A stretch of 64,000 nt of DNA from an uncultured Nitrososphaeraceae archaeon (GTDB lineage: Archaea; Thermoproteota; Nitrososphaeria; Nitrososphaerales; Nitrososphaeraceae). The translations under genes and the position numbers were made by a program. The notes under the pieces were generated by a model. The model did no database searches, was not told the origin of the DNA, and saw nothing but the letters and a program-made list of their open reading frames with translations. Numbering within the stretch: the stretch's first letter is position 1; every line of letters starts with the position of its first letter. This document shows, piece by piece, positions 2,079 through 44,807 of this stretch. The stretch lies in the NCBI GenBank assembly GCA_963825865.1, contig CAWGVG010000012.1, positions 10,584 to 74,583 on the forward strand. Direction: 5' to 3'.

Positions 2079-4271
2079 TTGATCATTTTATCATATTATT
2101 TTTATATATATATTAGTCGTTATTCTTTTAGAAACTATACGCAAGACGAAAAGATCAAAATATTTCATGGTATTGAAAATGTAATAAATACAGAATTACA
2201 ATTTTTCTCTAATGCAAATAATAGAATTGATACCTGTATGAATTATACAAGGCCTCAGTTAGCCATTGCACTTGACCCAATAAGGCATGCATTTGTCCAT
2301 GCTAAAAATAGAGGTGTAAGGCTAAGGTATCTTACTGAAATTACAACTGAAAATATTTCTTTTTGTAAACAGCTCTTGTCCACTGTTAGTGAGATAAGAC
2401 ATCTAGATGGTATAAAAGGGAATTTCATGATAAGTGAGTCGGAGTATCTTGCTCCTGCAGTTTTACTTGAGAAAGGGAAGGTGGCAGCTCGGATCATGTA
2501 TAGTAATGTTAAGGAGCTTGTAAAAGAACATGAGTATGTATTTGACATCCTTTGGAGCAAGTCAATTTCAGCTCAACAGAGAATAAAAGAAATCGAAGAA
2601 GGTATAGAGCCTATCAGAACTAGGCTCTTAGAAAATCAAGACGAGATCATCAGAGAAATTAAACGCCAAAACAATAGAGCTAACAAACTATCAATATGTA
2701 CAGCAATCGGAGGAATGCAGATGAGCTATAACTACCTTTTTGATTCATACAAGACTATAGTTGATAAACACAAGACAGGTGAGAGTAAAGAGGGATTGCG
2801 ATGGCTGACAAACATAGATGACAAAGAATCTGCCAATTTAGTTGAGCTACTTCTTAAATCAGGAATGCAAGCAAGACACACAAAAAGTATGCCGCCATTG
2901 AACTTTGGTGTATCAGATAAAGAAGTGGCGCTTACTGTAGAAAAGATGGGAGGTGGTAAGATGAGCAGACGCTTTTTAATAAGCAGTGAGCCACTATACG
3001 TAGACCATTTTAACAATTTATTTGACGAACTATGGAGGAACGGAATTGATGCTCAACAAAGAATAAAAGATATAGAACAAGGTGTCGAAACATCTGATAT
3101 CGAGATCATTACAAATCCAAAAGAGGGTATAAGTCGTTCTTGGGATTTGATAAGGTCTGCAAACCGAGAAGTGTTGATAATGGTTTCTACTGCTAATTCC
3201 TTTCGCAGACAGTTAAAGATGGGTATAATGAATTTGTTCAAAGAAGTGTGTAAAGAAGGTGCAGTAAAGATTAGAATGTTGATACCAGCCGCTTCTGATG
3301 AGCAAATGATACATACATTAAATGAATTAAGTCAAACAAATCCGCAACAGATTGTCGACTTTCGAATCGCAGATGAGAGTTTACGTTTTAGAATTACAAT
3401 TATATTAATCGACAAAAAAGATTGTATAATTATAGAAACAAATGATGACTATGCAGACAACTCATATGATGCAATGGGATTGACAACATATTCTAATAGC
3501 AAGTCGATCGTTCTATCATATGCTTCTATACTTGAAGGACTTTGGAAGCAATCAGAGTTATATGAACAACTAAAAGCTCATGATAAAATGCAAAAAGAAT
3601 TCATTAACATAGCAGCTCATGAATTAAGAACTCCTATACAACCAATACTTAGCTTTTCTCAACTCCTTCGGTCTGAAAAAAGCAATAATACCAAAGAACA
3701 GGAATTTTTAGATGCCATTGTTAGAAATGCAAAGAGGCTGCAGCGAATTACAGAAAACATATTAGATGTTACAAGAATTGAAAGTCACTCATTACAACTA
3801 AGGAAAGAGCAATTTAGCTTAAATGAAAATATAAGAAATGTAATAAACGATGTTAATAATCAAGCAGGATTTCGCAATAACAATAATAAAACTGTTTCAA
3901 TATTATTTGAGCCCGAACAGGATCTTATAGTAGAAGCAGATAGAGTAAGGATATACGAGGTTATTTCAAATTTGATTAAAAATGCCATCCAATTTACAAA
4001 AGAAGGTACTATAACTATTGCAGTGGCAGCAGCACGAAAGATGGATTACAATGGGGTACTAGTGAGTATTAAAGATACAGGGGCAGGAATAGATCCTGAT
4101 ATATTGCCTAGGTTGTTTACAAAGTTTTCTTCAAAATCAGTTACAGGAACCGGCTTGGGTTTGTTTATCTCAAAAAGCATTGTAGAAGCTCATGGTGGCA
4201 AGATTTGGGCGCAAAACAATACTGATGGTATAGGGGCAACATTTGCGTTCAGCCTACCACTTAGCGAATAA
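2079..4271 (+). CDS. Cytoplasmic sensor histidine kinase (repeated N-terminal input domains, HisKA, HATPase)
   Basis: H-box AAHELRTPIQ, N-box NLIKNA, DTGAG, GTGLGL; exact start uncertain. Confidence 0.93.
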   Translation: MIILSYYFYIYISRYSFRNYTQDEKIKIFHGIENVINTELQFFSNANNRIDTCMNYTRPQLAIALDPIRHAFVHAKNRGVRLRYLTEITTENISFCKQLLSTVSEIRHLDGIKGNFMISESEYLAPAVLLEKGKVAARIMYSNVKELVKEHEYVFDILWSKSISAQQRIKEIEEGIEPIRTRLLENQDEIIREIKRQNNRANKLSICTAIGGMQMSYNYLFDSYKTIVDKHKTGESKEGLRWLTNIDDKESANLVELLLKSGMQARHTKSMPPLNFGVSDKEVALTVEKMGGGKMSRRFLISSEPLYVDHFNNLFDELWRNGIDAQQRIKDIEQGVETSDIEIITNPKEGISRSWDLIRSANREVLIMVSTANSFRRQLKMGIMNLFKEVCKEGAVKIRMLIPAASDEQMIHTLNELSQTNPQQIVDFRIADESLRFRITIILIDKKDCIIIETNDDYADNSYDAMGLTTYSNSKSIVLSYASILEGLWKQSELYEQLKAHDKMQKEFINIAAHELRTPIQPILSFSQLLRSEKSNNTKEQEFLDAIVRNAKRLQRITENILDVTRIESHSLQLRKEQFSLNENIRNVINDVNNQAGFRNNNNKTVSILFEPEQDLIVEADRVRIYEVISNLIKNAIQFTKEGTITIAVAAARKMDYNGVLVSIKDTGAGIDPDILPRLFTKFSSKSVTGTGLGLFISKSIVEAHGGKIWAQNNTDGIGATFAFSLPLSE

Positions 4272-4460: not shown

Positions 4461-4913
4461 TTCAATATTATATTATTTAATTATTTTTCAGATCGTAGAG
4501 ACGATGAACATAATAAACCATTGCTAAACCAAGTCAACTATGCTCTATTGCACCTACATCTATCAGGCAAACATGAAGCCAAACCAAGCCACGAAGAACT
4601 AAAGAATTGGCTGGCACAGTGGTCAAGTAGATGTAATTAGAATGAACAAGTAATAAGCAAACAAACAAAAGGATGAAGACGTAACTTTTTATTTTTCAAT
4701 TATATTTTTCTTTTACCTTTTCTTAATTACGCATAGTTACGCGCAATCTGTACATTAAATGAAGAATTAGGAGAAGACGTTATTCTTATTGAAAGGGCAG
4801 AATACATGTAATAATACATTAGCGCAATATTGTAAGTTCAATAAATGATGTAATTTAAGTCCCTTGTAAGGCCTCTTATGTTTGCCATTACTTCTTCTTG
4901 ATATATTGGCATA

Positions 4914-6807
4914 TTGTATTTATATTTAAGAAAATCACATTCATATATTACGGAAGCCTACACAGAACCCGCTAGAACAGATATAATACATGGTATTGAT
5001 AATGTAGTAAATACTGTATCACAGTTTATCTCCAATACGAAATATAAAATTGATGTCTGTGTAGATTACACACGGCCATATCTAGCTATAGAAATTAATC
5101 AGTTGAGAGATGCTTTTTTTGATGCAAAAAAAAGAGGTATAAAAATAAGATACCTTACTGAGATTACAAAAGATAACCTTCGCTATTGCAAGGAACTAAT
5201 GCCCCTAGTTGAGGAATTCCGGCACCTGAACGGTATCAAAGGGAGTTTTTACATAAGCGAACAAGAGGTACGCAGCACCTGCCACATATCATGAAAAAGG
5301 AAAGTCTGCAGATATGATGGTTCATAGCACAGTTAAGGAAATAGTAGAGCATCAGCAATATGTGTTTGATACCATTTGGAACACATCTACCTCTGCAGAA
5401 AGAAAAATAAAAGAAATTGAAAGTGAAGGTGGTGTTAGTTTTGGTATAACAGAAATTATTGACCATCCCTTAAAGACCCAAGAATTATTTATTAATCTAA
5501 TAAAATCGGCCAAATTTGAGGTACTGCTAGTTCTACCCACAGTTAATGCATTTATGAGGGAATATAGAATTGGCGCAATACAGATACTCGAAGAACTATC
5601 CACAAGTGCTACCCAAAGAGGAACACCATCTAAAGAGAATTTACAAGAACAAGGAGGGAGAAGAGCAGAGATGAATATTAGGATTTTAACCCCCACTAAT
5701 GATGATATTGATAAAATAATTAATAATTTGAATTTAACAACAACATCGTCAAGGCTATCAGAAGGAGGAGAAGGGAAGTTGTCTAACAAAGCAAATAATT
5801 CCATTCTTCAAATAAGACATTTAGAATCCTTACCAAAGTATAACGTAACTACAGTAACAATATTGGTAGTCGATAGAAAAGCATCGTTAGTTATGGAAAA
5901 GGTAGATGATTCCAAAGAAACTTTTGTAGAAGCAGTAGGATTATCGACCTATTCTACAAGCGAGCCAACAATAATGTCTTATGTATCTATATTTGAGAAC
6001 TTTTGGAATCAGATTGAATTATACGAAGATTTAAAAGAATCAAAGGAAAAACTTGAAGAAACAAATGAACAGTTAAAAGAACATGACAAAATGCAAAGAG
6101 AGTTTATCAATGTAGCAGCTCATGAGCTTAGAACACCGATACAGGCTATCTTAGGATATGCGGAGATATTAGAGGGGGAATCTAGAAGAAGCAGACAATA
6201 TGTAATCCCAATCATGAGAAATGCTGTTAGACTTCAAGGCCTTGCAAATAATATATTAAATGTTTCAAGAATCGAGAGCCAAACTTTAAAGCTAAACAAG
6301 GAGAAGTTTAACATTAACGAAAGGATAAGAACTGTTGTAGAGGATATAAAGTCAAGAGCAGATGAAATAGAGATAGCTTTTGCTGATCCAAGAGTGGATC
6401 CTATAGTTGTAGAAGCAGATAAAATCAGAATTTATGAAGTTATTTCAAATCTGTTGACTAATGCCACTAAATTTACACGTAAAAGTGATAGTGATAGTGG
6501 CGATGGTATCAGCACTATAACAATCTTTACAGACATAAAGTCCAACCAAGCCGATAACAAATATAGTAGTAATAGTGCTGTCGAGGAGGAGGTTATTATT
6601 AGCGTAAGAGATAGAGGAACGGGTATTGACCCTAATGTTCAGGGGAAATTGTTTTCCAAATTTGTTACTACATCTGAGACAGGATCAGGATTAGGCCTGT
6701 TTATTTCCAAAGGCATTGTGGAAGCTCATGGTGGAAGGATGTGGGCGCAAAACAATACTGATGGCAGAGGAGCTACGTTTTACTTTAGCCTACCGTTAAT
6801 CAAATAG
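4914..6807 (+). pseudogene. Sensor histidine kinase with a single frameshift near 5268
   Basis: ORFs 4914-5294 and 5314-6807 join into one kinase (EQE/YAAPATYHEK); AAHELRTP and GSGLGL present; frameshift could be a sequencing error. Confidence 0.85.
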
Positions 6808-6940
6808 ATATTTAATACAGATTAACTAAATCCTAACTTTTTAGTTTATATAAATCGTAATTATTAACGTGGATGACAAAAATGGGTCAAATTTGTTATG
6901 AATCCCGCCGACTCACTTGTAATACCATAACAGATTGAGA
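6805..6940 (+). repeat. Kinase-3'-associated conserved element, long copy
   Basis: Begins at the kinase stop codon; near-identical to 59583-59709 and similar to 17841-17935. Confidence 0.9.
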
Positions 6941-7102: not shown

Positions 7103-7201
7103 AGGAGCTACGTTTTACTTTAGTCTGCCAATAATCAAGTAGATATTAATATAAAATAACTAAAGCTTAATTTTTCGTTTTATAAATCCAAATTATTAAC
7201 G
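7103..7201 (+). repeat. Kinase C-terminal tail (GATFYFSLPIIK*) plus 5' half of the conserved element
   Basis: Matches 6768-6869. Confidence 0.85.
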
Positions 7202-7250
7202 AAAAAGTCCAACATATGATAATTATAGTAGTAGGTATGTAGAACAAAAA

Positions 7251-7806
7251 ATGCAGTTAGAGAATGCGCCAAAAGGATGGAAAGTAAATTCTACAAAAAA
7301 AGTATATTCTAACTATCTTCTTGAACTATACGAAGATGTGCTTGATTTAAATGGTAAAGAAAAAACATATTTAAGAGGAGTTAGAAAGGACTACTCAACA
7401 GTAGTTCCCTTTGTCTCAAAAGATGAAATACTTGTAATTGAAAGCTATAGACACCTTGCAGACTCTACTCAGATTGAAGTACCTTCAGGATATATAAACG
7501 AAGGGGAATCTCCAAAAGATGGCAGCAATAAGAGAACTGAAAGAGGAAACCGGTTATGCTGCTAAAGATGTTATATCAATATGCCATTATACTCTTGACT
7601 ACTCTATGTTTGAACAGAAAGGAAACCTTTTTGTTGCATATGGTTTGGCCAAAGAACAAGAGCAATCTTTAGGAATAATGGAAAAAATAGATGTCAAAAT
7701 AATGAATATAAAAGATATAAAGCAACTACTCTTTGAAGGGAAGGTATTAAATGGAGCATCTATTGTTGCATTATACAGAGCATTAGATTTTCATAATCAG
7801 CGTTAA
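7251..7806 (+). pseudogene. NUDIX hydrolase (ADP-ribose pyrophosphatase-like), one frameshift
   Basis: Nudix box split across two ORFs: PSGYINEGESP / AAIRELKEETGY. Confidence 0.88.
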
Positions 7807-7815
7807 CGTAATTAA

Positions 7816-7911
7816 TAGATATTTAATATAGAATGACTAAAGCTTCCTTTTTTGTTTTAGAAATTCAAATTCGAACATGAATGACGAAAATGGGTCAAAT
7901 TTGTTCTGAAT
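7816..7911 (+). repeat. Kinase-3'-associated conserved element, diverged copy
   Basis: TAGATATTTAATA..ACTAAAGC..AAATTCAAATT..ATGACGAAAATGGGTCAAATTTGTTCTGAAT. Confidence 0.8.
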
Positions 7912-11596: not shown

Positions 11597-11902
11597 TTGA
11601 AAAAAATTGAGGATTTCAGAGATAACGGGGGAGAGCAAAAAATCGGAAATATAGAATCCATAGCTCAAACCTATAGTGAACATGTGAGCAATTATTTAAT
11701 AGGATTTACAATGGATTTGTTAACCAACGCTTCAAACTTTATTGAAAGCGGTTGGTTAGTAAATAAATTTCCTGATGAACTCAACAGAATGGCAGATGCG
11801 ATGAATTATGTGAAATCAGCTGAGATAAATGCCAACAAAACAGCTTTAACGCTATCTGATTTGCTAGATAGAATCAATTACAGGATACAAAGAACACACT
11901 AA
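11597..11902 (+). CDS. Hypothetical helical protein
   Basis: 101-aa ORF only. Confidence 0.45.
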   Translation: MKKIEDFRDNGGEQKIGNIESIAQTYSEHVSNYLIGFTMDLLTNASNFIESGWLVNKFPDELNRMADAMNYVKSAEINANKTALTLSDLLDRINYRIQRTH

Positions 11903-11956
11903 ATAATCGTATACGACATATAGCATGAATAGTGATGGTACCTACAATGAAAAGAA

Positions 11957-12250
11957 ATGCTTGGCTCAGGCGGCTATGCATTCGCCAAGTTGACAGATGA
12001 AGAACAAAAGAGATCGAATTTAGGTGTATCTGAAATATTTCTTGGCCAAGTAGGAAGACTAAATGAGGATAGATTTCTCAGATATTATTGCAACAAATGC
12101 CTAAAGGAATACCAAGGTTCTCCAAAAATAGCTTATGAAAATCCAAACGGAGAGTTAGGAGATGATGTAATTCTCTTGGAAAAGGGAGAGTGATACAAAT
12201 GCAATATGTGTAATAGTACATTAGCACAATACCGCAAGTTCAATAAATAA
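11957..12250 (+). pseudogene. Zinc-ribbon protein with an internal stop
   Basis: YYCNKC...EKGE, TGA at 12191-12193, then in-frame YKCNMC..LAQYRKF. Confidence 0.65.
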
Positions 12251-12443
12251 ATATATAAAAATACTTATTCATATAGACAAGAACTACATAAAAGGTGCTA
12301 TCTATTTTTTACAATATACACCGTTCATTCATCTGCTCTCGGAGTATTAGGAGAGATACTTCGGATTTACTTGCTACTCCTACAGTATCTTGTTCTCATC
12401 AAATCCAATTTATTTGTAATCCTACAAACTCAGAATATATCCA

Positions 12444-13088
12444 TCAATATCGATATTTGCCTTGTATTATTACCTTTGCAGGTACAATGAGTATCCAAAA
12501 ATATTGAGCAATTTGAATATCTATAAATGAAATTGCTATTGAACTTGCAAATATTAATGGTGGGGTAATTGCTTGAAGTGATATGGCCCTTATGTGTAAA
12601 GGACTCATATTCTTATCAATTAAAAGTCGATCCTTTGATGCATGCAGCCAAATCAAAGCCAATAATGAGCCTGTGATGCTTATGATAATTGCATATAACA
12701 AAAACACAATATGGTATAAGGGATAAACTGTCTCAAGAGATGTAGCAAATGATATAAGTGTAATAAAAAATAAAAAGGCTAAATTTACCCATATTAAGAT
12801 TGAATGAGATGCCCGAATATGGTTAAGAATCTGATGATATGAGATCCAATAAATTCCAATTATTAAGAAGCTAATTGCATAAATTTCAAATTGTGGCCGT
12901 AAATGTAAAATCTTATTGATAAGCTCTGCCTGTGTGAGGTCACTTGAAAGATTAGGAATTCTTATCGAAAGAGCCATAAAGGTTATTGAAAAAGCAAATA
13001 TGGCATCACTAAAGGAAATGACATGATCTAACCTTACTCTACTTGACATGCCTTGTACATTATCCAATTTACTATTACTTCTCTGCAT
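12444..13088 (-). CDS. TMEM175-family K+ channel-like membrane protein
   Basis: R....SFSDAIFAFSIT signature, YW..YH motif, about six hydrophobic segments. Confidence 0.88.
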   Translation of the reverse strand: MQRSNSKLDNVQGMSSRVRLDHVISFSDAIFAFSITFMALSIRIPNLSSDLTQAELINKILHLRPQFEIYAISFLIIGIYWISYHQILNHIRASHSILIWVNLAFLFFITLISFATSLETVYPLYHIVFLLYAIIISITGSLLALIWLHASKDRLLIDKNMSPLHIRAISLQAITPPLIFASSIAISFIDIQIAQYFWILIVPAKVIIQGKYRY

Positions 13089-15456: not shown

Positions 15457-15747
15457 ATGGGTATTGGATTTGTTATTTCATTTATCTTACCATTTCCTTT
15501 ATCTCTTGCTGCTTCATTGCTTGTATTCTTACTAGTAAATGCAGTTAGAGCAGATATTGCTTTGAGAAGACAGGGTATAGGCGGAATCAAAGGATTATAC
15601 AAATCTCTAACTTCATTTGGTAAGAGCAACGACAGCAATAGCAGATTTGGGTACACTCAAACTAAATTCTATTGTATGAGTTGTGGATATGAACATAGAG
15701 AATATGAGTGTCCTAAATGTGGCTCAAAGGCTGTAAAAGTTGGATAG
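15457..15747 (+). CDS. Membrane protein with C-terminal zinc ribbon
   Basis: Hydrophobic N-terminus, YCMSCG...ECPKCGSK. Confidence 0.7.
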   Translation: MGIGFVISFILPFPLSLAASLLVFLLVNAVRADIALRRQGIGGIKGLYKSLTSFGKSNDSNSRFGYTQTKFYCMSCGYEHREYECPKCGSKAVKVG

Positions 15748-16070
15748 TGGTGAAAAATAACAACCACCGAATTTTTTGATTTGTTTAAGAATAAATTTCA
15801 ATCATTAAGCGCAGGCGAATACACGCGATCATGCATGGGGAACAGAATACAATGGATTTCTATTATTTGAAGCAGACAGCAGTGATTCATTTTTGGATTG
15901 GTGGTCAAGCTTTAAAGATAAGGTTAGATGGCATGTAGAGCAAACACACACCATAACTGCTAGAAGACACTAATCTTTTTCTTCTTCGGTTGGTTCTTTA
16001 ATTGATCTAGTTACCATCGTAGGACTAGTGGATGTCAATTGATTAATGGGATTTGGTTCTATAGCGGCTG

Positions 16071-16547
16071 CTACTGTTTGTTGCTACTGTTTGTTGCTGC
16101 CTCTTTGCGATACAGCTTAGAAGTAGTAGTACTGCTGTTATCGACACTAGAAGTAATAGTGTCAGCAGTCAAATCACAAAAATCTTCATCTCTGAGCAAA
16201 GAAGATTTAACTCCTACTTCTTTATTCAAATATATTGAATATCCTAACAGGTTTTCATTATTATCTATTTCTTCTAAATATGCAAAATCCTTTTCACAAT
16301 TTATATTAAGATTTTCTTTGCTTTTTTTCTCAAAATAGTTACACTTGACATATTCTATAGCATCGTGCCAAGTATAGGCCTTTATCCTATCTGTTGGTTG
16401 ACCACCTTTACCAAATCGGCTGTTACTATTATTATTATCAATGCGATATTTGAAAACCTCAAAATATTCAGCTACCTTGATGCAATTATTACAGTAAACA
16501 TTTTTTCCATTCTTACTACAATTTTCACATTGCTGTTCTATAACCAT
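16071..16547 (-). CDS. Hypothetical protein with N-terminal CxxC pairs
   Basis: CENC...CNNC; 158-aa ATG ORF. Confidence 0.5.
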   Translation of the reverse strand: MVIEQQCENCSKNGKNVYCNNCIKVAEYFEVFKYRIDNNNSNSRFGKGGQPTDRIKAYTWHDAIEYVKCNYFEKKSKENLNINCEKDFAYLEEIDNNENLLGYSIYLNKEVGVKSSLLRDEDFCDLTADTITSSVDNSSTTTSKLYRKEAATNSSNKQ

Positions 16548-16980: not shown

Positions 16981-17843
16981 GTGGATATTCTTTTTTTTAG
17001 AAACTATACACAAAACGAAAAGATTAAAATATTTCACGGTATTGAAGATGTAATAAATACAGAATTACAATTTTTCTCTAATGCAAATAACAGAATTGAT
17101 ACTTGTATGAATTATACAAGGCCTCAGTTAGCAGTTGCACTTGATCCAATAAGGCATGCATTTGTTCATGCTAAGCATAGAGGCGTAAGGCTAAGGTATC
17201 TTACTGAAATTACAATTGAAAATATTTCTTTTTGTAAACAGCTGCTGTCCACTGTTAGTGAGATAAGACATCTAGATGGAATTAGAGGGAATTTTATGAT
17301 AAGTGAATCAGAGTATCTTGCTCCTGCAGTTTTATTTGAGAAAGGGAAAGTCGCAGCTCGGATTATTTATAGCAATGTAAAGGAACTTGTAAAAGAACAT
17401 GAGTATGTATTTGACACCCTTTGGAGCAAGGCAATTTCAGCTGAACAGAGAATAAAAGAAATTGAAGAAGGAATAATACCTATCAAAACTAGGCTCTTAG
17501 AAAATCAAGACGAGATAATCAGAGAAATAAAACGCAAAAACAATGCTGCTAACAAACTATCAATATGTACAGCAATCGGATTACCATTACTATAGCAGCA
17601 GAAGAAGAAAAGGTGGATTACAATGGGGTACTAGTGAGTATTAAAGATACAGGGGCAGGAATAGATCCTGATATATTGCCTAGGTTGTTTACAAAGTTTG
17701 CTACAAAATCAGTTGCAGGTACCGGCTTAGGCTTGTTTATTTCCAAAGCCATTGTGGAAGCTCATGGGGGAAAGATTTGGGCTGAGAATAATGCTGATGG
17801 AAAAGGATCTACATTTTACTTTAGCCTACCGTTAATCAAGTAG
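16981..17843 (+). pseudogene. Histidine kinase paralogue with a large internal deletion (no H-box)
   Basis: Matches 2125-2711, then jumps to the equivalent of ~4010 onward. Confidence 0.9.
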
Positions 17844-17935
17844 ATATTTAATACAGATTAAACTAAAGCCTAACTTTTTCGGTTTATAAATCGTAATAAT
17901 TAACGTGGATGACAAAATGGGTCAAATTTGTTCTG
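17841..17935 (+). repeat. Kinase-3'-associated conserved element
   Basis: Matches 6805-6900. Confidence 0.9.
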
Positions 17936-36517: not shown

Positions 36518-37546
36518 TGTTGTATCTACAAACATAGGTAACAATATAGCTTACAGACATAGGTAACACTTCTGCTAGGAAGTGGAAATCTCTATAGAAA
36601 TTAGAACAAAATTCAATCTCATTCATGAACATGAATGGACTGGTAATAGTATTAGCGATATTTGCAATAAATACGAAATATCTAGGAAGACATATTACAA
36701 GTGGAAAAATAGATACATAGAGCACGGAATAGACGGGTTGAAAGACCTATCTAGAAGGCCTCATAGCATCAAAACCAAAGTATCTAAAGAAATAGAAGAA
36801 ACAATACTTGATTTAAGATTAAAGACCTTTGGTACTAGTAGAATCAGGTTCAGATTAAAAAGACTTGGAGTATCATTGAGCAGTAGAACCATATACAAGA
36901 CATTGAAAAAACATACTCTCAACGTTCTAAACTGTAAGGTAAAGAATAATAGAAAGTATAAGCGATTTGCAATGAAACATCCAAATGACATGCTTCAAAT
37001 GGATATACTTGGACCATTTTACGTACGCTGTTCTAGCACAAGAAATTACATGATAAGCTGTATAGATGACTGTTCAAGAAAAGTTGCTAGCAAGTGGTCT
37101 GAAAGAAAGAGGAGCATTGATGTTTTGAATGTACTAGAGGAGTGGATTATGGATAACGGAAAGCCCAGGAAAGTTATGCATGACAACGGTAAGCAGTTTA
37201 CATCTAAACTATTCAAACACTTTCTATATAAGAATAACATAAAGGATAAACCAATTCCAAATTCATATCCACAGTTACAAGGAAAGATAGAAGCATATAA
37301 CAAGATTGTAAAGAATGAGTTCTTGACAGTTGAAGAAATAACAAGTATTGATGATGGAAAACTAAGGTATGATATGTTTGTCAAAGCATATAATGAAACT
37401 AGGGAACATGGTGGAATAAATGGTCTTACTCCTTCTGAAAGGTTTGTACAAAGGTTAATTAAATCTAAGACATATACAAAAAGGAAGCAAGAAAGTGTAA
37501 CCTATGTAGGTAATCAAAATTGTTACCCATCTGTGTAAGTACAACA
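36518..37546 (+). mobile_element. IS481-family insertion sequence, intact
   Basis: TGT...ACA ends, duplicated internal motif TACA.ACATAGGTAACA, 6-bp TSD GCTAAA (36512-36517, 37547-37552). Confidence 0.93.
36582..37538 (+). CDS. IS481-family DDE transposase
   Basis: N-terminal HTH; QMDILG, HDNGKQF, GKIEAY. Confidence 0.92.
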   Translation: MEISIEIRTKFNLIHEHEWTGNSISDICNKYEISRKTYYKWKNRYIEHGIDGLKDLSRRPHSIKTKVSKEIEETILDLRLKTFGTSRIRFRLKRLGVSLSSRTIYKTLKKHTLNVLNCKVKNNRKYKRFAMKHPNDMLQMDILGPFYVRCSSTRNYMISCIDDCSRKVASKWSERKRSIDVLNVLEEWIMDNGKPRKVMHDNGKQFTSKLFKHFLYKNNIKDKPIPNSYPQLQGKIEAYNKIVKNEFLTVEEITSIDDGKLRYDMFVKAYNETREHGGINGLTPSERFVQRLIKSKTYTKRKQESVTYVGNQNCYPSV

Positions 37547-38769
37547 GCTAAATATGCTTCCAGGATAGGAGATCTCGACATTGCAGAAAGGTGTTATAAG
37601 AGAGCCATTGATGATGCAAAATATCTAGGGCGACTCCAAGATGAGATGGATTGTTTATTGGATATGACAGCAACTGTCTATTCCGTATGGGGTAGACATA
37701 AAGAAGCTCTGTCTAACTATCAATCATTATTAGAATATTACGATAAGGTCAACGATACTGGAAAGCTAGCACGTGTCTTAAACGATAAATGTATGATACT
37801 TTACAGGAAAGGAGAGCATGATAAAGCGATGGAGCTATACAACCAAAGCTTGGAGATAGCGTAAACAGAGAAGAGATCAGGAAATGATTGCAGGTATTTT
37901 GAACGATATAGTATGGTACATGACAGGAAAGGAGAGCATGATAAAGTTATGGAGCTTATACAACCAAAGCTTGGAGATATCAGAGCAGTCTAGAGATCTG
38001 GATGTGATTGTATCTACTTTGAATAACAAGGCTAATGTGCATTACAGGAAAGGAGAGTATGATAAAGCTATCGAGCTATACAACCAAAGCTTGGAGATAT
38101 CGGAGAAGAGACTAGGATATCAGTATATGGTTGAATCGACATTGAATAACATAGCTGCAATCCATTATATTAAAGGAGCGTATGATAAAAGCTATGGAGC
38201 TATACAACCAAAGCTTGGAGATAGCGAAACAGATAGGAGATCAGGAAGGGATAGCACATACTTTGAGCAATACATCTATGATACATGACAGGAAAGGAGA
38301 GTATGAGGAAGCCATTTCTGCAGTATTACAAGCTTATGAAATACTAGACAAACTAAAGTCTCCAGAACTCCAAAGACCAGTTGACATATTAGATGGCATA
38401 AAAGATAAGTTAGGAAGCGAAGCTTTGGAAAGACTTTTCGAGAAAGTACAAAGTCAAGATTTAAGTTGACGGCCTGATAATGCTGGAGGAGCCCCCACCT
38501 CACGCTCAATAGTTGCACCCTGCCACGCTCAGTTTTTTGGAATGTTGCAAACTTATGCTAAGAGTTCCTACCAAATCAAAGCTTTATACTTTTTGTAGCA
38601 GACTTTACTGATGCTACATTCTCTCTGAAAGCCGACTTTTCTCGAGCTATATATCCTGGGAAAATAGGCTTTTCTAGAGCGAAACTCTCTGATGAAGCAG
38701 ACTTTTAGTAGGAGGAACAGTTGCGGTAACAACAACAGGCAGGCAGCAATACGACCAGCATATGCAATA

Positions 38770-38908
38770 ACATTTGGAAGTACAAAAAATATAAGCAACA
38801 ATGATGGAAATTCAAATAATCCACAGATGGATTGCATGGAAGCAATGTGTATATTGTATGGCAAGACGACACGCCGGGAAACTTTGACATACTCTTCAAG
38901 AAGGTGTT
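38770..38908 (+). pseudogene. BNR/Asp-box-like secreted protein fragment
   Basis: TFGSTKNISNN...NVYIVWQDD / PGNFDILFKK. Confidence 0.5.
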
Positions 38909-39227
38909 GATTGAAAACAACAGCAAGGAGAAGAGGATAATAATAAATAAATAAAAAAACTTCTCTTATTTTTTATAATCTTTTACAGGAGTATGACCTA
39001 TTTTTCTTTTTGACAGTTAAGTATCTCCAGAGCAAAGGTATCAAGACAAAAGAAATACTGGTATTTTCATAAATCAAGTCTACTATATGCGAGGAGAAAA
39101 TGCGGTTGATAGGGAGAGTGTGCGGTCACTGGTCATACTATATATAGATTGCAAAGCAGAACGATACTCTGTATAGAATCATTGTTTATGGCTGAGAACA
39201 GTTAATAAAATATAAGATTGAGGGTAT

Positions 39228-39305
39228 TGTTACTGTAGATAAGAAACATAGTAATGACATTCAAAGATCTGAAGAAGAAGAGGATAATAATTAGCAGCAA
39301 TCAAC
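39228..39305 (+). repeat. Direct repeat, left copy (start of the terminase-like gene)
   Basis: Matches 40351-40425. Confidence 0.9.
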
Positions 39306-39341
39306 GGTTATAAGTGATTACAACTTTTTCGTATATATGTT

Positions 39342-40292
39342 ATGAAAGCCGGAATGCTCTTGCCGCAAATTGGAGACTGTTATAAGAGAAAACGTTCTGT
39401 ATATAGCAAAGGAGACTGAAAAGGAAGGCCTTGATTCTGTTTGGGTATTAGAACGCCTTTTGTGGCCACTCAAGCCCCAGACATCTTATTATTTTACACC
39501 TTATGGTTCTCTTCCAGTTGAATACCAAAATGTACTTGACCCGCTGGAGACGCTTACCTACTTGGCAGGTAATACAGAGCAAATTTCTTTAGGAACTTGT
39601 GTAATTGATATTTTGTTTCATAATCCTGTAGTATTAGCAAGGCGGTTTGCAACACTCGATATCCTATCACATGGGCGGGCTATTGCAGGTCTAGGAATTG
39701 GATGGTCAAAAGATGAGTATGGTGTTTTCGGTGTATCTTACCAACACAGAGGGGAAAGGGCAAACGAATTTTTACAATTGCTAAAGCGAATTTGGACTGA
39801 TGATGTAGTAGAGTTTAAAGGTAAATTCTACTCCTACCAGCTTCAAAAATTGGGCCAAAGCCTGTGCAGAAACCTCATCCTCCAATACTGCTTGGTGGAT
39901 GGTTACCTACAGGTTTACGAATAGTAAACTATGCAGATGGACGGTTATACATTGCTGGATTTGAACCATTAGAACAGCTTGAACAGGCTATAAACGGCCT
40001 GAGAGAAGGCGCAAGAAAAGCCAACAGAGATCCTTCGAAGATTTGTGCATTTGCGTTGACATATCCAAATGTGCTAGACTCTTCTTCCTCTCCTTCTTCT
40101 GCAACTTCCTCCTCCTCAGATCAACAGAGATTGCCCATGACCGGTACCATTGACCAAATTGGAACTGACATTGATCAAATCAAAGCGATGGGCGTAGAGC
40201 ATATAATATTTGGTCATAAGTTTTCTCCAATAGGCAAGGATATGAAGAAGATGATCGAGATAACAAAACAGCTTGCTAGATTTGCTAGATAA
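39342..40292 (+). pseudogene. LLM-class (probably F420-dependent) oxidoreductase, frameshifted
   Basis: GLDSVWVLERLLWP, LARRFATLD, GLGIGWSKDEY, QKPHPPILLGG. Confidence 0.88.
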
Positions 40293-40350
40293 AAACACAG
40301 TTATGATTACGTGTCTTTGGAAAAGGAGAAAAGCATAAAGTTGATGATAG

Positions 40351-40425
40351 TGTTACTGTAAATAAGAAACAAAGTAATGACATTCAAAGATCTGAAGAAG
40401 AGGATAATAAATAGTAGCAATCAAC
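40351..40425 (+). repeat. Direct repeat, right copy
   Basis: Matches 39228-39305. Confidence 0.9.
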
Positions 40426-40890
40426 AGCAACAACAAACACAATCTCTTGACAAATTACAGAATAAACCATTCTGGATTTGGGATCAGCAACAGCACAGAT
40501 TAGAAGATATTAAAACCAATGGATACTGCTGCCTTTAATCACAAAATTGGCCTGCCAACAAAAGAAGGACTGGAAAAACCAATTTTCGACTACCAGGAAT
40601 TATTGTACGAGGCTTTGCTCTCGCCAGACTTTTGCAATCCTCTGAATCATGATTTCAAGGATAAGCACCTTTGGATAAAGAAGGCAACTGGTTTAGGGGT
40701 TACCGAATTTTTCCTCAGGTTTATGGCATGGCTCTGTTTAAAAAATAACGATTATAGAAATTCACAAATGTGCATTGTAACTGGCCCTAACATAGACATT
40801 GCCATCAAGTTAATCAAGAGAATGAAAGGGTTGTTTGAGCGAAAGCTGGGGTTAACTTTTCCCAGCAAAGAAACAGTCCTAGAATTAAGC
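40377..40890 (+). pseudogene. Terminase large subunit-like / SF2-like ATPase, N-terminal fragment
   Basis: MTFKDLKKR...KPFWIWD; FDYQ (Q-motif-like) followed by Walker-A-like KKATGLGVTE; truncated. Confidence 0.6.
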
Positions 40891-41304
40891 TCCCTCTAAA
40901 TATGCCTTAACATCTATATCGATAACATTAAACGGTATCGTTACTATAAAATTTATTGACTATACTCTTCTCAGTCACATGGTCTAAAGCTAGAAGAAGA
41001 TGCCATAAAGGTATGACAGGAATATGGACTAGGATATTAAATGATGCTATTTCTAAGAGTTGCATTAGTAAGTTATAATAATTTACCGTTTACTCTACGC
41101 AAACTATATTCTAACAATCACGAGGTACATTCACAATATATATAGATCCAGAGGAAGATTTGGATGAATGGGAATCAGAGGATGAAGAGGACGATAGCTA
41201 TGACATAAGAGATAACCAAGAAGACGAAGATAGATGGTATTCTACTAAATTAAAATATCAGCATCACAAAGAATCATCATCAGACAAATCATACAGGAAG
41301 GTAC

Positions 41305-42290
41305 AAAAGGGGCAATAGTGTTAGATCCGGTAAGAGGTTTGCATCATGATGTTTACGTGTTTTATGTGATCAGCCTGTATCCAACTATAATAAAGTATAC
41401 TCCTGCTGCAAAAATGATTCACAGGCACAGAAACTGTTACTTCAGAGATTTTGAGGGATTGTGGTCATATTCCAGAAAAAGAGACTCCAGGAACTAACAG
41501 AGCAGCGGATAAAACACAAGAATGCTGGTTTAGAACTTAAGTCAAGCAATCAAGGCTATTATAAATTCTGGTTACGGCGTTTTGGGTCATCCTTATTTCA
41601 AATACCACGATCCAAGAGTTGCTGAACTTGTAACCGCATCGACATACATTAAATAATATGCAGGCACTAACCAGTGAACTTAGTTTTGTCACTTTATGGT
41701 GATACTGATTCTTTATTTGTAAATGATGTAAAAAGTATTGATGAGAGCAAAAAGTTCATTGCGGAATGTAAGTCAAAGCTAGGAATCGATGTTATGCAAG
41801 ATAAAGTGTTCACTAAGCTGATCCTTGTTGGCAAAAAGCACTACATTGGAATACCGTCTGACATAACCAAGAAGCTTATCATCAAGGGAATGGAGGGGAT
41901 AAAATCAGATAGGCCTGAGTTTATTCATAGAACGTTCAGATAGATGGTAGAGGATATTAAAAATGGTGTCAGTCCAATCCCGAAGTTAAAGGAAGCTCTG
42001 TACCAGATAGAAAATAGACGAGTTTCTGCAGATCTGCTGTCTATATCACTAGCCATGCGTAAAAATCCAGAAGAATACGAACAGAACTGCAAGCAAAACA
42101 GGTTGGGTTCTAAACTTGGACTACACAAAGGTGATACTCTTGTGTACTATAAGTGTGACAATGGCGAGATGGCTTATGACTCGGAGAATCCACCGGATAT
42201 CAGCTATACAGCATACAAAAATATGCTCATAAATAGTGTTAAAGATGTTCTACAAATTTTGGGATACGATGTCGAGGAACGTTTGCTGCA
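41305..42290 (+). pseudogene. Family B DNA polymerase, polymerase domain, fragmented
   Basis: GAIVLDP..., ISLYPTII, KAIINSGYGV, YGDTDSLF, KKHY, IKGMEGIKSD. Confidence 0.88.
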
Positions 42291-42409
42291 CACAGATGCC
42301 TCACAATTAATTGACAATATTCGATTAAATCCGATCAGTATTCCTGATACCGCTACTGCTGCACCTGTATCTCAAATTGATAGTAGAGTTACCAACAAAA
42401 AGAAAGAGA

Positions 42410-42910
42410 CAAGATCATTAGTATCAGAAGGGATCGAAATTATTCTTTCACTTTTTGCAGCAGTAGAACAAAGATTGTTTCCAAGAACTATTATGACAAA
42501 ATGTACTAACGGGCAAGTTAGAAGTACAGTAACAAAAATGAAATTATGTATTATTTTGAGACTTATCCTGCATTTCTGTCGAAGGCTGAAGAACAAAATT
42601 ACAAAAATGGAATTAACCTGAATTTGCTTGCACCTAGCATTCTTTTTATTGATTTGGATGCTAAGAAATTCACGTCTGATAGAGAATTTAGAGATACATT
42701 CAAACAAATTCTAAATAGAATTGCATATTTGTTACATGATTGCAAGCCTTTGGTGCTCTGGTCAGGTCATGGATACCATATAATAATTCCAGTTAGTTGC
42801 AAAGCATTAGAATGCTGTCAGGATTTAACTCAATACACATGTGAACCTTCAAAGAAGTTTTTTGCAGTTTGCAGAGCGCCTTTTATCGCTGAATAGATCT
42901 GATCCTGCTA
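42410..42910 (+). pseudogene. AEP-superfamily primase-like fragment
   Basis: LFIDLD (motif I), WSGHGYHII (motif II); directly follows polB. Confidence 0.7.
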
Positions 42911-43650: not shown

Positions 43651-44807
43651 ATGGTAGGGTTTCTGAGCAAAATCCTAGGGATATGCATTCCTTCAACAAT
43701 ACTGGTAATGACCATCGTGGCGTCTGTATTTATATCACCAGCGCACCATATTACAGCACAAACCTTAGAGAGCATACTACAAGAAAGAAACGCATTTAAA
43801 AACAATCCCCAAATCAACCTTCGTGATCTGTTAGGCGGTGTAGCGGTTGATCCAGGTTCAAATAAAGTCTATGTGACCGACGACACACCTCTCATACTGT
43901 GTCTGTTATTGATAGTAATTCAGGAAATATAACTAATGAGATACGTGTTGGAGAAACTCCCACAGCTGTCTACTTTTTGGTCCATTTTCACATAAAGTCT
44001 ATGTGGCAAATTCTGATGGTTATAGTGTCTCTATTATAGATTCTTTTAATGGTAAAAAAGTAAAGGACAATAACAAACACGTATTTGTACGTAGAATCGG
44101 GCACGAATTGTTTTGCTAAAGCCAACAAAGACTTTGAATTCAGTAGTTGGGTTCAGAACTTGCCTCATAACTCAACGATCACATTGAATACAACAGAAAT
44201 TTCTGATTCTCCTTGGAACTCTTTTCTAAGACTCATAGATAGGGAACCAAATGATCCATCAGTAACCTTTGATGTTAACGCATATGGCAGCTATACTGCT
44301 CATTTCAAACCTCTTCCCCCTGCCGTTCCAGCCGAATATTGGATTCCATTATACGGAGTTATTGTCAGTTCCATAGTTGGCTGGTCTATACCAAGCATCG
44401 TAGGATGGGTAAGAGCAAAGAGGCAAGGGGGAAAGGCATATCATTATTACAAGAGGATTAATTACTTGAACAGTAATAGTAGACTAGAGGAAAATGAAAT
44501 TACAGATTTATACAAATTAGAAAGAGACATAACATACGGATATACGAAAGGTAAGATAAATGAGCAGCATTATTCAAATTTGAAAAGCGAGATTTCAGTT
44601 CTTTATGAAGAGATTTACAAGAAAAAAATTGATTCGTTAACAGGTAACGAGATACGTTTGAATAAGCTTAGAGAAGATGAAGATGCTTATGCAAAAGGAA
44701 AAATAAGTGAGCAGCACTATAAGCTTCTAATCGGGAAGATTTCTGACAATAAAAGTAAACAAGGTTCTGCCGACAAGCTACCATCAGCCCAAGGGGCTAG
44801 TAAATGA
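43651..44807 (+). pseudogene. YVTN/YncE-like beta-propeller surface protein, internally deleted and frameshifted
   Basis: Signal peptide, GVAVDPGSNKVYVT, KVYVANSD; C-terminal TM helix plus KGKI.EQHY repeats. Confidence 0.7.

Follow-up and report, generated by a model that had tools for sequence, protein, structure and literature searches.

A luciferase-like oxidoreductase gene between two copies of a terminase-gene overlap zone in a Nitrososphaeraceae archaeon: an apparent relic of gene capture

Introduction

The accretion of morons has been described for phages in the sections of PMC2839356 and PMC3594210 that deal with them, and among T4-type phages promoter-bearing repeats, termed PeSL, were proposed to move open reading frames (ORFs) (Arbiol et al. 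2010, the pertinent part of PMC2839356). Homology-facilitated illegitimate recombination is described in part of PMC3240628 for incoming linear DNA in bacteria. In archaea, NitKor-E1 of the Thaumarchaeota figures, in the part of Krupovic et al. 2019 (PMC6563490) concerned with it, as a cryptic integrated element with TerS and TerL only. Here we describe a locus with features that recall several of these systems. It lies in a 64,000-nucleotide (nt) stretch of an uncultured Nitrososphaeraceae archaeon (NCBI GenBank assembly GCA_963825865.1, contig CAWGVG010000012.1, positions 10,584 to 74,583 of the forward strand), hereafter the window, and consists of a luciferase-like (LLM) oxidoreductase pseudogene set between two direct copies of the zone in which a gene for a terminase large subunit-like protein (terL) overlaps its upstream neighbour, designated U. 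We read the locus as a probable remnant, now decayed, of the capture of a gene where two element genes overlap, and there are signs that homology-driven exchange followed.

Like a moron, the LLM gene is an extra gene, with a putative promoter of its own, placed between two genes that are neighbours in related elements; probably acquired illegitimately, it brings no mobility gene. As with PeSL, short and probably promoter-bearing repeats flank a non-essential gene, would give homology for exchange without a recombinase and would keep the regulation of the neighbour. The likeness to NitKor-E1 consists in a TerL homologue preceded directly by a small gene, with no further genes of head-tail viruses recognised nearby. 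Direct repeats on both sides of an inserted gene, with the target regenerated, are also reminiscent of the target-site duplications (TSDs) of transposons and of integron cassettes. A narrow literature search, including the relevant part of PMC6563490, returned no archaeal precedent for cargo between TerS and TerL or for such duplications.

The genome analysed is a 4.98-Mb bin of 62 contigs (~35% G+C; 81.8% complete, 2.8% contaminated), and the comparison genomes were 40 relatives, none of them of the same genus. Below, W denotes the cassette locus in the window (the latter being C12:10584-74583), C-numbers are contigs of the same genome, G-numbers stand for other genomes, L-numbers for loci of this or other genomes, and X-numbers for public metagenome runs. 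The highest share of sampled words found in any of these runs was 0.22; only short contigs were usable, and the parts they leave uncovered are uninformative.

Results

The flanking repeat and the module it belongs to

The LLM gene is bracketed by two copies of one stretch in the same orientation (Table 1). By blastn, 39212-39305 matches 40335-40425 with 87.2% identity over 94 columns, including one 3-nt indel (E 1.8e-26 against the 4.98-Mb genome), and a gapless comparison of 39207-39296 with 40330-40419 gives 83%. The direct repeat that a preliminary description, made from the letters alone, had put at 75-78 bp is therefore real and beyond chance matching, but it is about 95 nt long and not unique, its sequence being present at 23 genomic loci. 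The two copies differ at about 13-16% of positions (84-87% identical). In the family alignment the left copy is 83.7% identical to the right one and 83.7-84.4% to members on C4, C45 and C21, and the upstream parts belong to different subtypes, that of C4 and C52 on the left and the majority subtype on the right. Next to the junction both W copies have a signature in common (about 24 of 26 nt, counted by eye) that most other copies lack. The left copy ends at the junction in ...CAATCAAC, directly followed by GGTTATAAG; read in the U frame, it closes with ...VTVDKKHSNDIQRSEEEEDNN and a stop. No inverted repeats better than 20 nt at 75% were found within 38000-42000, and Rfam returned only a sub-threshold CRISPR-DR match at chance level (E 0.5).

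The TerL-like family is represented in the genome by 55 blastn fragments, of which few are intact, namely those of 513-517 aa on C4 and C59 and of 501 aa on C48. All three of these match phrog_2 (terminase large subunit, PHROGs) over residues ~70-510, with E values of 4.5e-18, 1.8e-19 and 2.2e-19, and two of them show a weak DEAD match in Pfam; no match was obtained in NCBIfam or in a sequence search of the PDB. The stretch LLDEAD is visible in the sequence, which we take to be a Walker-B-like motif. Homology among terL copies begins about 50 nt before the ORF and stops with it, and the same upstream start point recurs in 19 of the 55 fragments. The preliminary description had the right copy running into the terminase-like gene, and so it does, but this gene is frameshifted and its homology is lost at 40888.

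U is a separate multi-copy family. In C45, C40 and C4 its stop lies 68-74 nt past the terL ATG; terL begins within U, its first ~24 codons coinciding with the final ~70 nt of that gene and its upstream region likewise falling inside the U tail. In other genomes, the ORF upstream of terL overlaps it by 59-68 nt (L026 and L027) or abuts it (L035). This ORF has 179 aa in L027 and L035 and 148 aa in L026; N-terminal helix-turn-helix (HTH) matches were found in L035 and a weak, sub-threshold one in L027, and neither HTH nor any other match in L026. From position and look we infer that U is a small terminase subunit; PHROGs returned nothing for it. Two other readings of parts of this module were tried and dropped. 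Short 5' terL pieces (10 of 55 fragments) were taken for aborted copies of a gene-sized element; read in the other frame, they turn out to be the normal ends of U genes. A Prim-Pol replicase function of U was suggested by the copy on C51, the only one fused to Prim-Pol: about 25 C-terminal copies and about 8 Prim-Pol parts exist, adjoining only there. The C51 fusion itself (C51:32143-33627; L019:2144-3625) joins the U C-terminal domain to a Prim-Pol domain (PF09250, 27.5 bits), parts that elsewhere stand apart.

Altogether, the genome contains about 20 or more copies of the U-terL module, mostly decayed. Uninterrupted U/terL forms occur on C59, C45, C40 and C10, and in L027 and L035 of other genera; L048 and L041, from other genomes, contain tandem strings of U, terL fragment, U and terL. 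No portal or capsid domains were detected by Pfam within 5 kb on either side of seven related loci (45 ORFs, many of them without any match). On C59, the module is enclosed by two very young families of insertion sequences (IS; C59:9035-9952, 15522-16436 and 11600-12800): one is a ~1-kb element with a 305-aa transposase in 50-60 copies, the other a 1.17-kb element with 98-99.6% identity on at least 12 contigs.

The ~100-nt repeat thus reads as the end of U, the terL upstream region and the start of terL, i.e. the U/terL overlap zone, in which the ~50 nt before the terL ATG would be the terL promoter. An insert between U and terL that keeps both the U tail and the terL start must have the overlap stretch twice, and the ~95-nt duplication at W would accordingly exist because two backbone genes overlap. 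The interrupted stretch stands on both sides, so that the downstream gene keeps its start, which bears out the earlier view of a regenerated target.

Direct repeats upstream of terL were searched for at 20 loci of other genomes, and one clear pair only was found (L038, 77 nt). In this further Nitrososphaerales metagenome-assembled genome, L038:3021-3097 covers the promoter region of a minus-strand gene (158 aa) together with its first ~12 codons, and this stretch is repeated 1.7 kb away at 4758-4834, where the second copy precedes another gene just upstream of a broken terL. As an insert-flanking duplication this pair was discarded: with the start of a minus-strand gene repeated beside another gene, it is most simply explained by tandem paralogues.

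The captured gene and its origin

Two frames of the LLM gene match Bac_luciferase (PF00296) in Pfam, with E values of 7.8e-35 and 2.1e-5, and nothing besides. GGTTATAAG is located at 39306-39314, about 30 nt before the LLM ATG, and the TATA-like motif (29-34 nt ahead of the start codon) has been conserved in orthologues from G009, G023 and G017. The preliminary description had proposed an LLM oxidoreductase gene with such a motif about 30 bp before its ATG, lying between the repeat copies and free of terminal inverted repeats (TIRs) and recombinases, and all of this was confirmed by Pfam, coordinates, the repeat search and the ORF scan. The cargo (39305-40326) contains no transposase or recombinase ORF, the sizeable ORFs being the two LLM frames and short antisense or overlapping ones. 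Among the 64 window ORFs of at least 80 aa there is no Phage_integrase match, and the recombinase-type matches are only to rve and DDE transposases.

Near-full-length matches to LLM, with 65-86% nucleotide identity, are found in 11 genomes of other Nitrososphaeraceae genera. At all seven loci compared by blastn, homology extends from about 37 nt before the ATG to about 10 nt past the stop, and neither terL nor U adjoins the orthologue; among the tblastx matches listed for the flanks there are only LLM and three tiny ones. No match crossing from LLM into the repeat was found among the 40 relatives. Because the orthologues stand in other genera, behind the same promoter and without terL beside them, the LLM gene is, on this comparative evidence, a host gene that was captured by the element and not the reverse. 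A native LLM locus was not identified in this genome.

In G009, G023 and G017 the orthologues are open reading frames throughout, while two frame changes are needed to read W; metagenome contigs of X2, X3 and X5 have an extra A at 39834, and some X2 and X3 contigs an extra CC at 39378. What had been called a whole transcription unit in a mobile-element backbone is, then, a promoter-plus-gene unit of host origin, but one that is frameshifted twice. A second copy of the gene, on C2, is about 88-89% identical to that of W and has its own early 1-nt loss instead, and 131 nt from the LLM start are found on C62. The final ~60 nt of the C2 gene recur in inverted orientation 760 nt away (C2:43482-43544 and 44305-44367; L003:2483-2545 and 3306-3368); this 63-nt repeat, 73% complementary, brackets a PNPOx-like gene.

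Junctions and exchange among copies

The left junction, from terL +54 to LLM -37, is identical in W and C2, the left copy of C2 having an outer repeat part of another subtype and missing 32 nt. The right junction (LLM stop, ~34-nt filler, terL -50) is common to W and C26, where LLM is reduced to its last 256 nt and immediately follows a complete U gene. Both junctions are also bridged by contigs from public soil metagenomes, the left one in X1, X2 and X3. The 137-nt X1 contig covers 39228-39357 without a difference, but X1 may be the source sample and hence is not independent; junction-bridging contigs from different studies are 88-97% identical to W. The LLM composite exists in related populations. 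Since the left junction is the same in W and C2, the right one in W and C26, and both recur in metagenome contigs, each of them, to judge from these sequences, arose once. An X2 contig with a back-joint of 40332 to 39228 can equally be read as an ordinary right junction of a relative. Back-joints in short contigs, and joints that skip, such as one from 39275 to 40428, are explained by other family members.

Identity between W and C26 changes along the locus, from 94.9% in the LLM 3' part (253 nt) through 85% in the filler (34 nt) and 88.8% in the repeat (89 nt) to 81.1% in terL (212 nt); the step from 94.9% to 81.1% has a z of about 4.7 by our own arithmetic on the counts. The terL of W is 80-83% identical to those of C59, C4 and C61, which lack LLM, and 64-79% to four truncated copies. 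Overall, LLM copies are 89-95% alike and terL copies 80-86%. The outer part of the C2 left copy is 93% identical to C3 copies and 82-84% to the W left copy, and the LLM tree is ((W,C26),C2). As LLM copies are closer to each other than the adjoining terL copies, the cassette would have been exchanged after the modules diverged; the simplest reading is that cassette and junctions passed among already diverged module copies, with crossovers or conversion tracts ending in the repeat.

Comparable structures in the genome

The preliminary description had also pointed to the same geometry at a NUDIX gene, and we find this gene between two pieces that overlap by ~73 nt, with a similar arrangement in a pair of sites on C7 and C8. 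Only one copy of the NUDIX gene exists; it is frameshifted, and the matches to orthologues in five other genera are confined to its coding part. The target is a region that follows histidine-kinase genes; 335 nt upstream it occurs without interruption, as it does on at least five other contigs. Since the left piece adjoins the remnant of a second kinase gene, an origin from tandem paralogues is again possible. The target family consists of the last ~150 nt of histidine-kinase genes and ~130 nt downstream, in more than 40 copies (window 6600-6910 and 17685-17935, and many contigs); the downstream part includes the beginning of a small ORF as well as a TATA-like motif, and conservation extends beyond the coding region.

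On C7 (32029-34584), a 2.3-kb insert with a short-chain dehydrogenase (SDR) gene and a gene for a 425-aa membrane protein (transporter) splits a gene and lies between 107-nt direct repeats. The uninterrupted form is present at C8:110153-111003, with flanks 95-96% identical. The left repeat of C7 is 11% diverged from the right repeat and from C8, whereas the flanks differ by 4-5%; a donor already carrying a diverged copy, with one homologous and one illegitimate end, appears to fit this better than a fresh duplication.

A scan of the genome for repeat pairs of 40-200 nt, at least 80% identity and gaps of 0.3-3 kb gave 35 direct and 8 inverted pairs. In a strict empty-site test (150-nt flanks, spanning match) 7 of the 35 direct pairs had a counterpart, most at 68-77% identity, and the LLM pair was missed; a relaxed test gave an uninterrupted paralogue for 8 of the 35. 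The lengths of direct pairs are broadly distributed and mixed with tandem paralogues, many of the 35 lying in tandem paralogous genes. The genome-wide check that the preliminary description called for did find direct pairs in excess of inverted ones, but no genome-wide excess of such structures is concluded from it. Likewise, the empty sites it asked for exist as uninterrupted targets, and these are other copies or belong to other genera. No young or identical example of a flanking repeat was found (identities are 84-89%), nor any protein consistently linked to such inserts.

Discussion

Relation to known systems

U and terL are adjacent, overlapping or abutting, in C45, C40, C4, L026, L027 and L035, as the genes around a moron would be. 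W differs from phage morons in being archaeal, in its ~95-nt flanking duplication, owed to overlapping backbone genes, and in that the gene is now a pseudogene. Behind the gene no terminator was identified, no search aimed at one having been made. With PeSL it has in common a multi-copy repeat (the 23 loci) that includes ~50 nt upstream of the terL ATG, a putative promoter, and flanks LLM. Unlike PeSL, the W repeat is the overlap of two coding genes and not a promoter with a stem-loop terminator, and its copies are 80-90% alike. Moreover, mini-circles belong to PeSL, whereas exchange at W is deduced from the step in identity (95% to 81%) and the mosaic repeat copies. The difference from NitKor-E1 is that the pair is present here in dozens of mostly broken copies in one genome.

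In contrast with IS elements and transposons, W lacks a transposase in the insert as well as terminal inverted repeats, and in place of a short TSD it has a diverged repeat of ~95 nt. It differs from an integron cassette in its own promoter (predicted, TATA-like); no attC-like palindrome was found in it and no integrase in the window. Site-specific integration with attL and attR would likewise be at odds with the missing integrase and with repeat copies that are not identical (13-16% differences). In homology-facilitated illegitimate recombination, one homologous and one illegitimate end leave a donor-type copy on one side and the resident copy on the other; C7/C8 looks like this and may be such a case.

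Origin and spread of the cassette

We lean, with modest assurance, towards one old illegitimate capture of a host gene followed by spread through homologous recombination in the repeat, whichever way the first structure formed. The host LLM gene would have been joined into the U/terL overlap zone by non-homologous joins, arriving with no more than about 37 nt of its upstream region, TATA box included, and about 10 nt past the stop. With the left join at terL +54 and the right join, with the ~34-nt filler, at terL -50, the stretch from -50 to +54 would come to stand on both sides, the left copy closing the U remnant and the right one opening terL. At the outset, a single insertion may have duplicated the stretch, or there may have been two joins, with two module copies taking part. 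Afterwards the unit would have passed among diverged modules (W, C2, C26 and the C62 fragment) through homologous recombination or gene conversion in which the repeat supplied the crossover sites, a step in part borne out by the identities given above. Such spread would resemble the linker- or PeSL-mediated modular shuffling in phages and need no dedicated enzyme. All copies have since decayed; at W, the LLM, TerL-like and polymerase genes are broken.

A number of points weigh against this reconstruction, whose mechanism was directly observed at no step. Random illegitimate joins would not be expected to trim LLM (-37/+10) and NUDIX so tightly, so selection must be invoked. The flanking duplications are similar in size at three loci (LLM ~100 nt, NUDIX ~73 nt, C7 107 nt), which hints at a common mechanism, and since the C7 insert splits a gene, the keeping of overlapping gene ends fails to explain the duplication there. 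The uninterrupted U/terL forms seen are not alleles of this locus. The step in identity between W and C26 may partly reflect slower evolution of LLM, under past purifying selection, than of terL, and on the left side there is no step, W and C2 being 84% identical in the repeat and 88% in LLM.

Alternatively, the first structure may be an eroded tandem array, in which the LLM gene stood between two U/terL modules of the same orientation and deletions left little of the first terL and nothing of the second U, so that the repeat copies would simply be two family members. We regard this as unlikely, if far from idle. The left copy resembles the right one no more than it does other members of the family, the two have upstream parts of different subtypes, the region is full of truncated genes, and tandem U/terL strings are present in other genomes (L048, L041). 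In addition, three close same-strand repeat pairs (no more than 3 kb apart; W, C3 and C4) exist against 0.15 expected under random placement (P about 5e-4). In the C3 pair, the left copy is 95.6% identical to that of C61 and 88.7% to its own right partner, and the two copies of C4 are of different subtypes with a common stretch of little more than 17 + 15 nt; both pairs are thus different family members and therefore neighbours, not duplicates of one target. The array would, on the other hand, require two deletions with ends that hug a complete gene and its promoter, and this again at NUDIX, and the signature next to the junctions that the two W copies have in common is lacking in most other copies. 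Nor is low left/right identity an argument against duplication at capture, since the W and C26 repeats, which necessarily separated after it, are equally diverged (83% in the family alignment).

A bolder reading is that the overlap zone serves as a recombinase-free docking site for cassettes in integrated elements of Nitrososphaeraceae, an archaeal counterpart of PeSL mini-circle shuffling: host genes, cut down to promoter and ORF, would leave as loops that include one copy of the repeat and enter again at any of the dozens of others, a process possibly started by the terminase-like nuclease cutting imprecisely at a pac-like site. We find this doubtful; if true, it would also account for the 60-110-nt duplications at NUDIX and C7.

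We rate lower still a dedicated mechanism, in which break repair or replication inserts gene-sized DNA and duplicates 60-110 nt of the target, by candidate routes such as staggered cuts about 100 nt apart, imprecise terminase cutting at a pac-like site beside terL or polymerase template switching, because there is no young example and no linked protein. It would fit the recurrence of the geometry at the three loci, with the uninterrupted form of C7 on C8, the excess of direct over inverted pairs (35 versus 8), the uninterrupted paralogues of the relaxed test and the U/terL junction broken in many copies, short 5' pieces among them. However, many of the direct pairs lie in tandem paralogous genes, the short 5' pieces are U tails, the diverged left repeat of C7 better matches a diverged donor, and the back-joints in metagenome contigs are equally ordinary right junctions of relatives. 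As for the copy-in or template-switch event that the preliminary description had in mind, nothing points to a dedicated mechanism of this kind: the copies, at 84-87% identity, are as far from each other as from other members, the C3 and C4 pairs are not duplicates, and no recent example was found.

An assembly artefact, with unrelated pieces joined through a repeated stretch, might be feared in a fragmented, incomplete and slightly contaminated bin with many repeat families, but it is scarcely credible, as copies that differ at about 13-16% of positions do not collapse in a k-mer graph, the left junction is seen again on C2 and the right on C26, the X1 contig covers 39228-39357 exactly and contigs from other studies bridge both junctions.

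Being a decayed relic, the locus has no physiological importance. If the capture that we favour is true, it would be an archaeal example of a host gene becoming cargo of an integrated element without a dedicated enzyme. It would also mean that an insertion between overlapping genes carries a long 'target duplication', easily mistaken for the footprint of a new kind of transposition. Finally, it suggests that soil ammonia-oxidising archaea, a group with little-studied mobile elements, may exchange modules by way of multi-copy gene-boundary sequences that act as linkers.

Features and surroundings of the locus

The window is repeat-rich, other genomic copies existing for most of its 1-kb bins. 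It contains arrays of histidine-kinase and response-regulator genes, tetratricopeptide repeat (TPR) fragments, an IS481-type transposase gene, two DDE transposase genes and many split ORFs, and truncated genes are abundant around the cassette (Table 1).

Table 1 Coordinates of the cassette locus, the NUDIX locus and neighbouring genes in the window
Feature	Position	Strand	Remarks
Left copy (B')	39170-39304	+	Decayed 3' tail of gene U, terL-like upstream region and first ~18 terL codons; core repeat 39207-39304
LLM promoter region, native	39305-39341	+	TATA-like TTATAA at 39308-39313; homologous upstream of orthologues in G009, G023, G017
Luciferase-like (LLM, PF00296) oxidoreductase pseudogene	39342-40292	+	ATG 39342, stop 40290-40292; frame breaks near 39378 and 39834
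Trailer/filler, LLM stop to right copy	40293-40326	+	34 nt; common to C26; not in C2 or orthologues
Right copy (B)	40327-40425	+	terL-like upstream region (about -50) and first ~16 codons, runs on into gene
TerL-like gene remnant	40377-40888	+	About 170 of ~510 codons; frameshift near 40520-40538; family homology ends 40888
Second locus, same geometry	7103-7911	+	Left piece 7103-7209, NUDIX gene 7251-7806, right piece 7809-7911; pieces overlap ~73 nt in family coordinates
Uninterrupted paralogue of NUDIX target	6768-6903	+	Histidine-kinase gene end and downstream region
IS481-type transposase gene, intact (rve core and HTH)	36582-37535	+	Pfam; context, outside cassette, 1.7 kb upstream
Family-B DNA polymerase and PriX fusion pseudogene	41306-42909	+	5'-truncated, three frames; blastx to 829-aa ORF C31:3586-6072

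The polymerase pseudogene downstream of the cassette has a relative in the 829-aa ORF on C31 (L005:1087-3573), in which DNA_pol_B (Pfam E 1.3e-35, residues 47-411) is fused to a C-terminal PriX (Pfam E 2.5e-8; NCBIfam primase_PriX, 57 bits). No exonuclease part was matched in this ORF, and polB-PriX is an unusual fusion. Adjoining the IS481-type element, at 38000-38320, three tandem units of ~122 nt (69-72% identical) lie in split ORFs of TPR proteins; these units are the TPR repeats at the DNA level.

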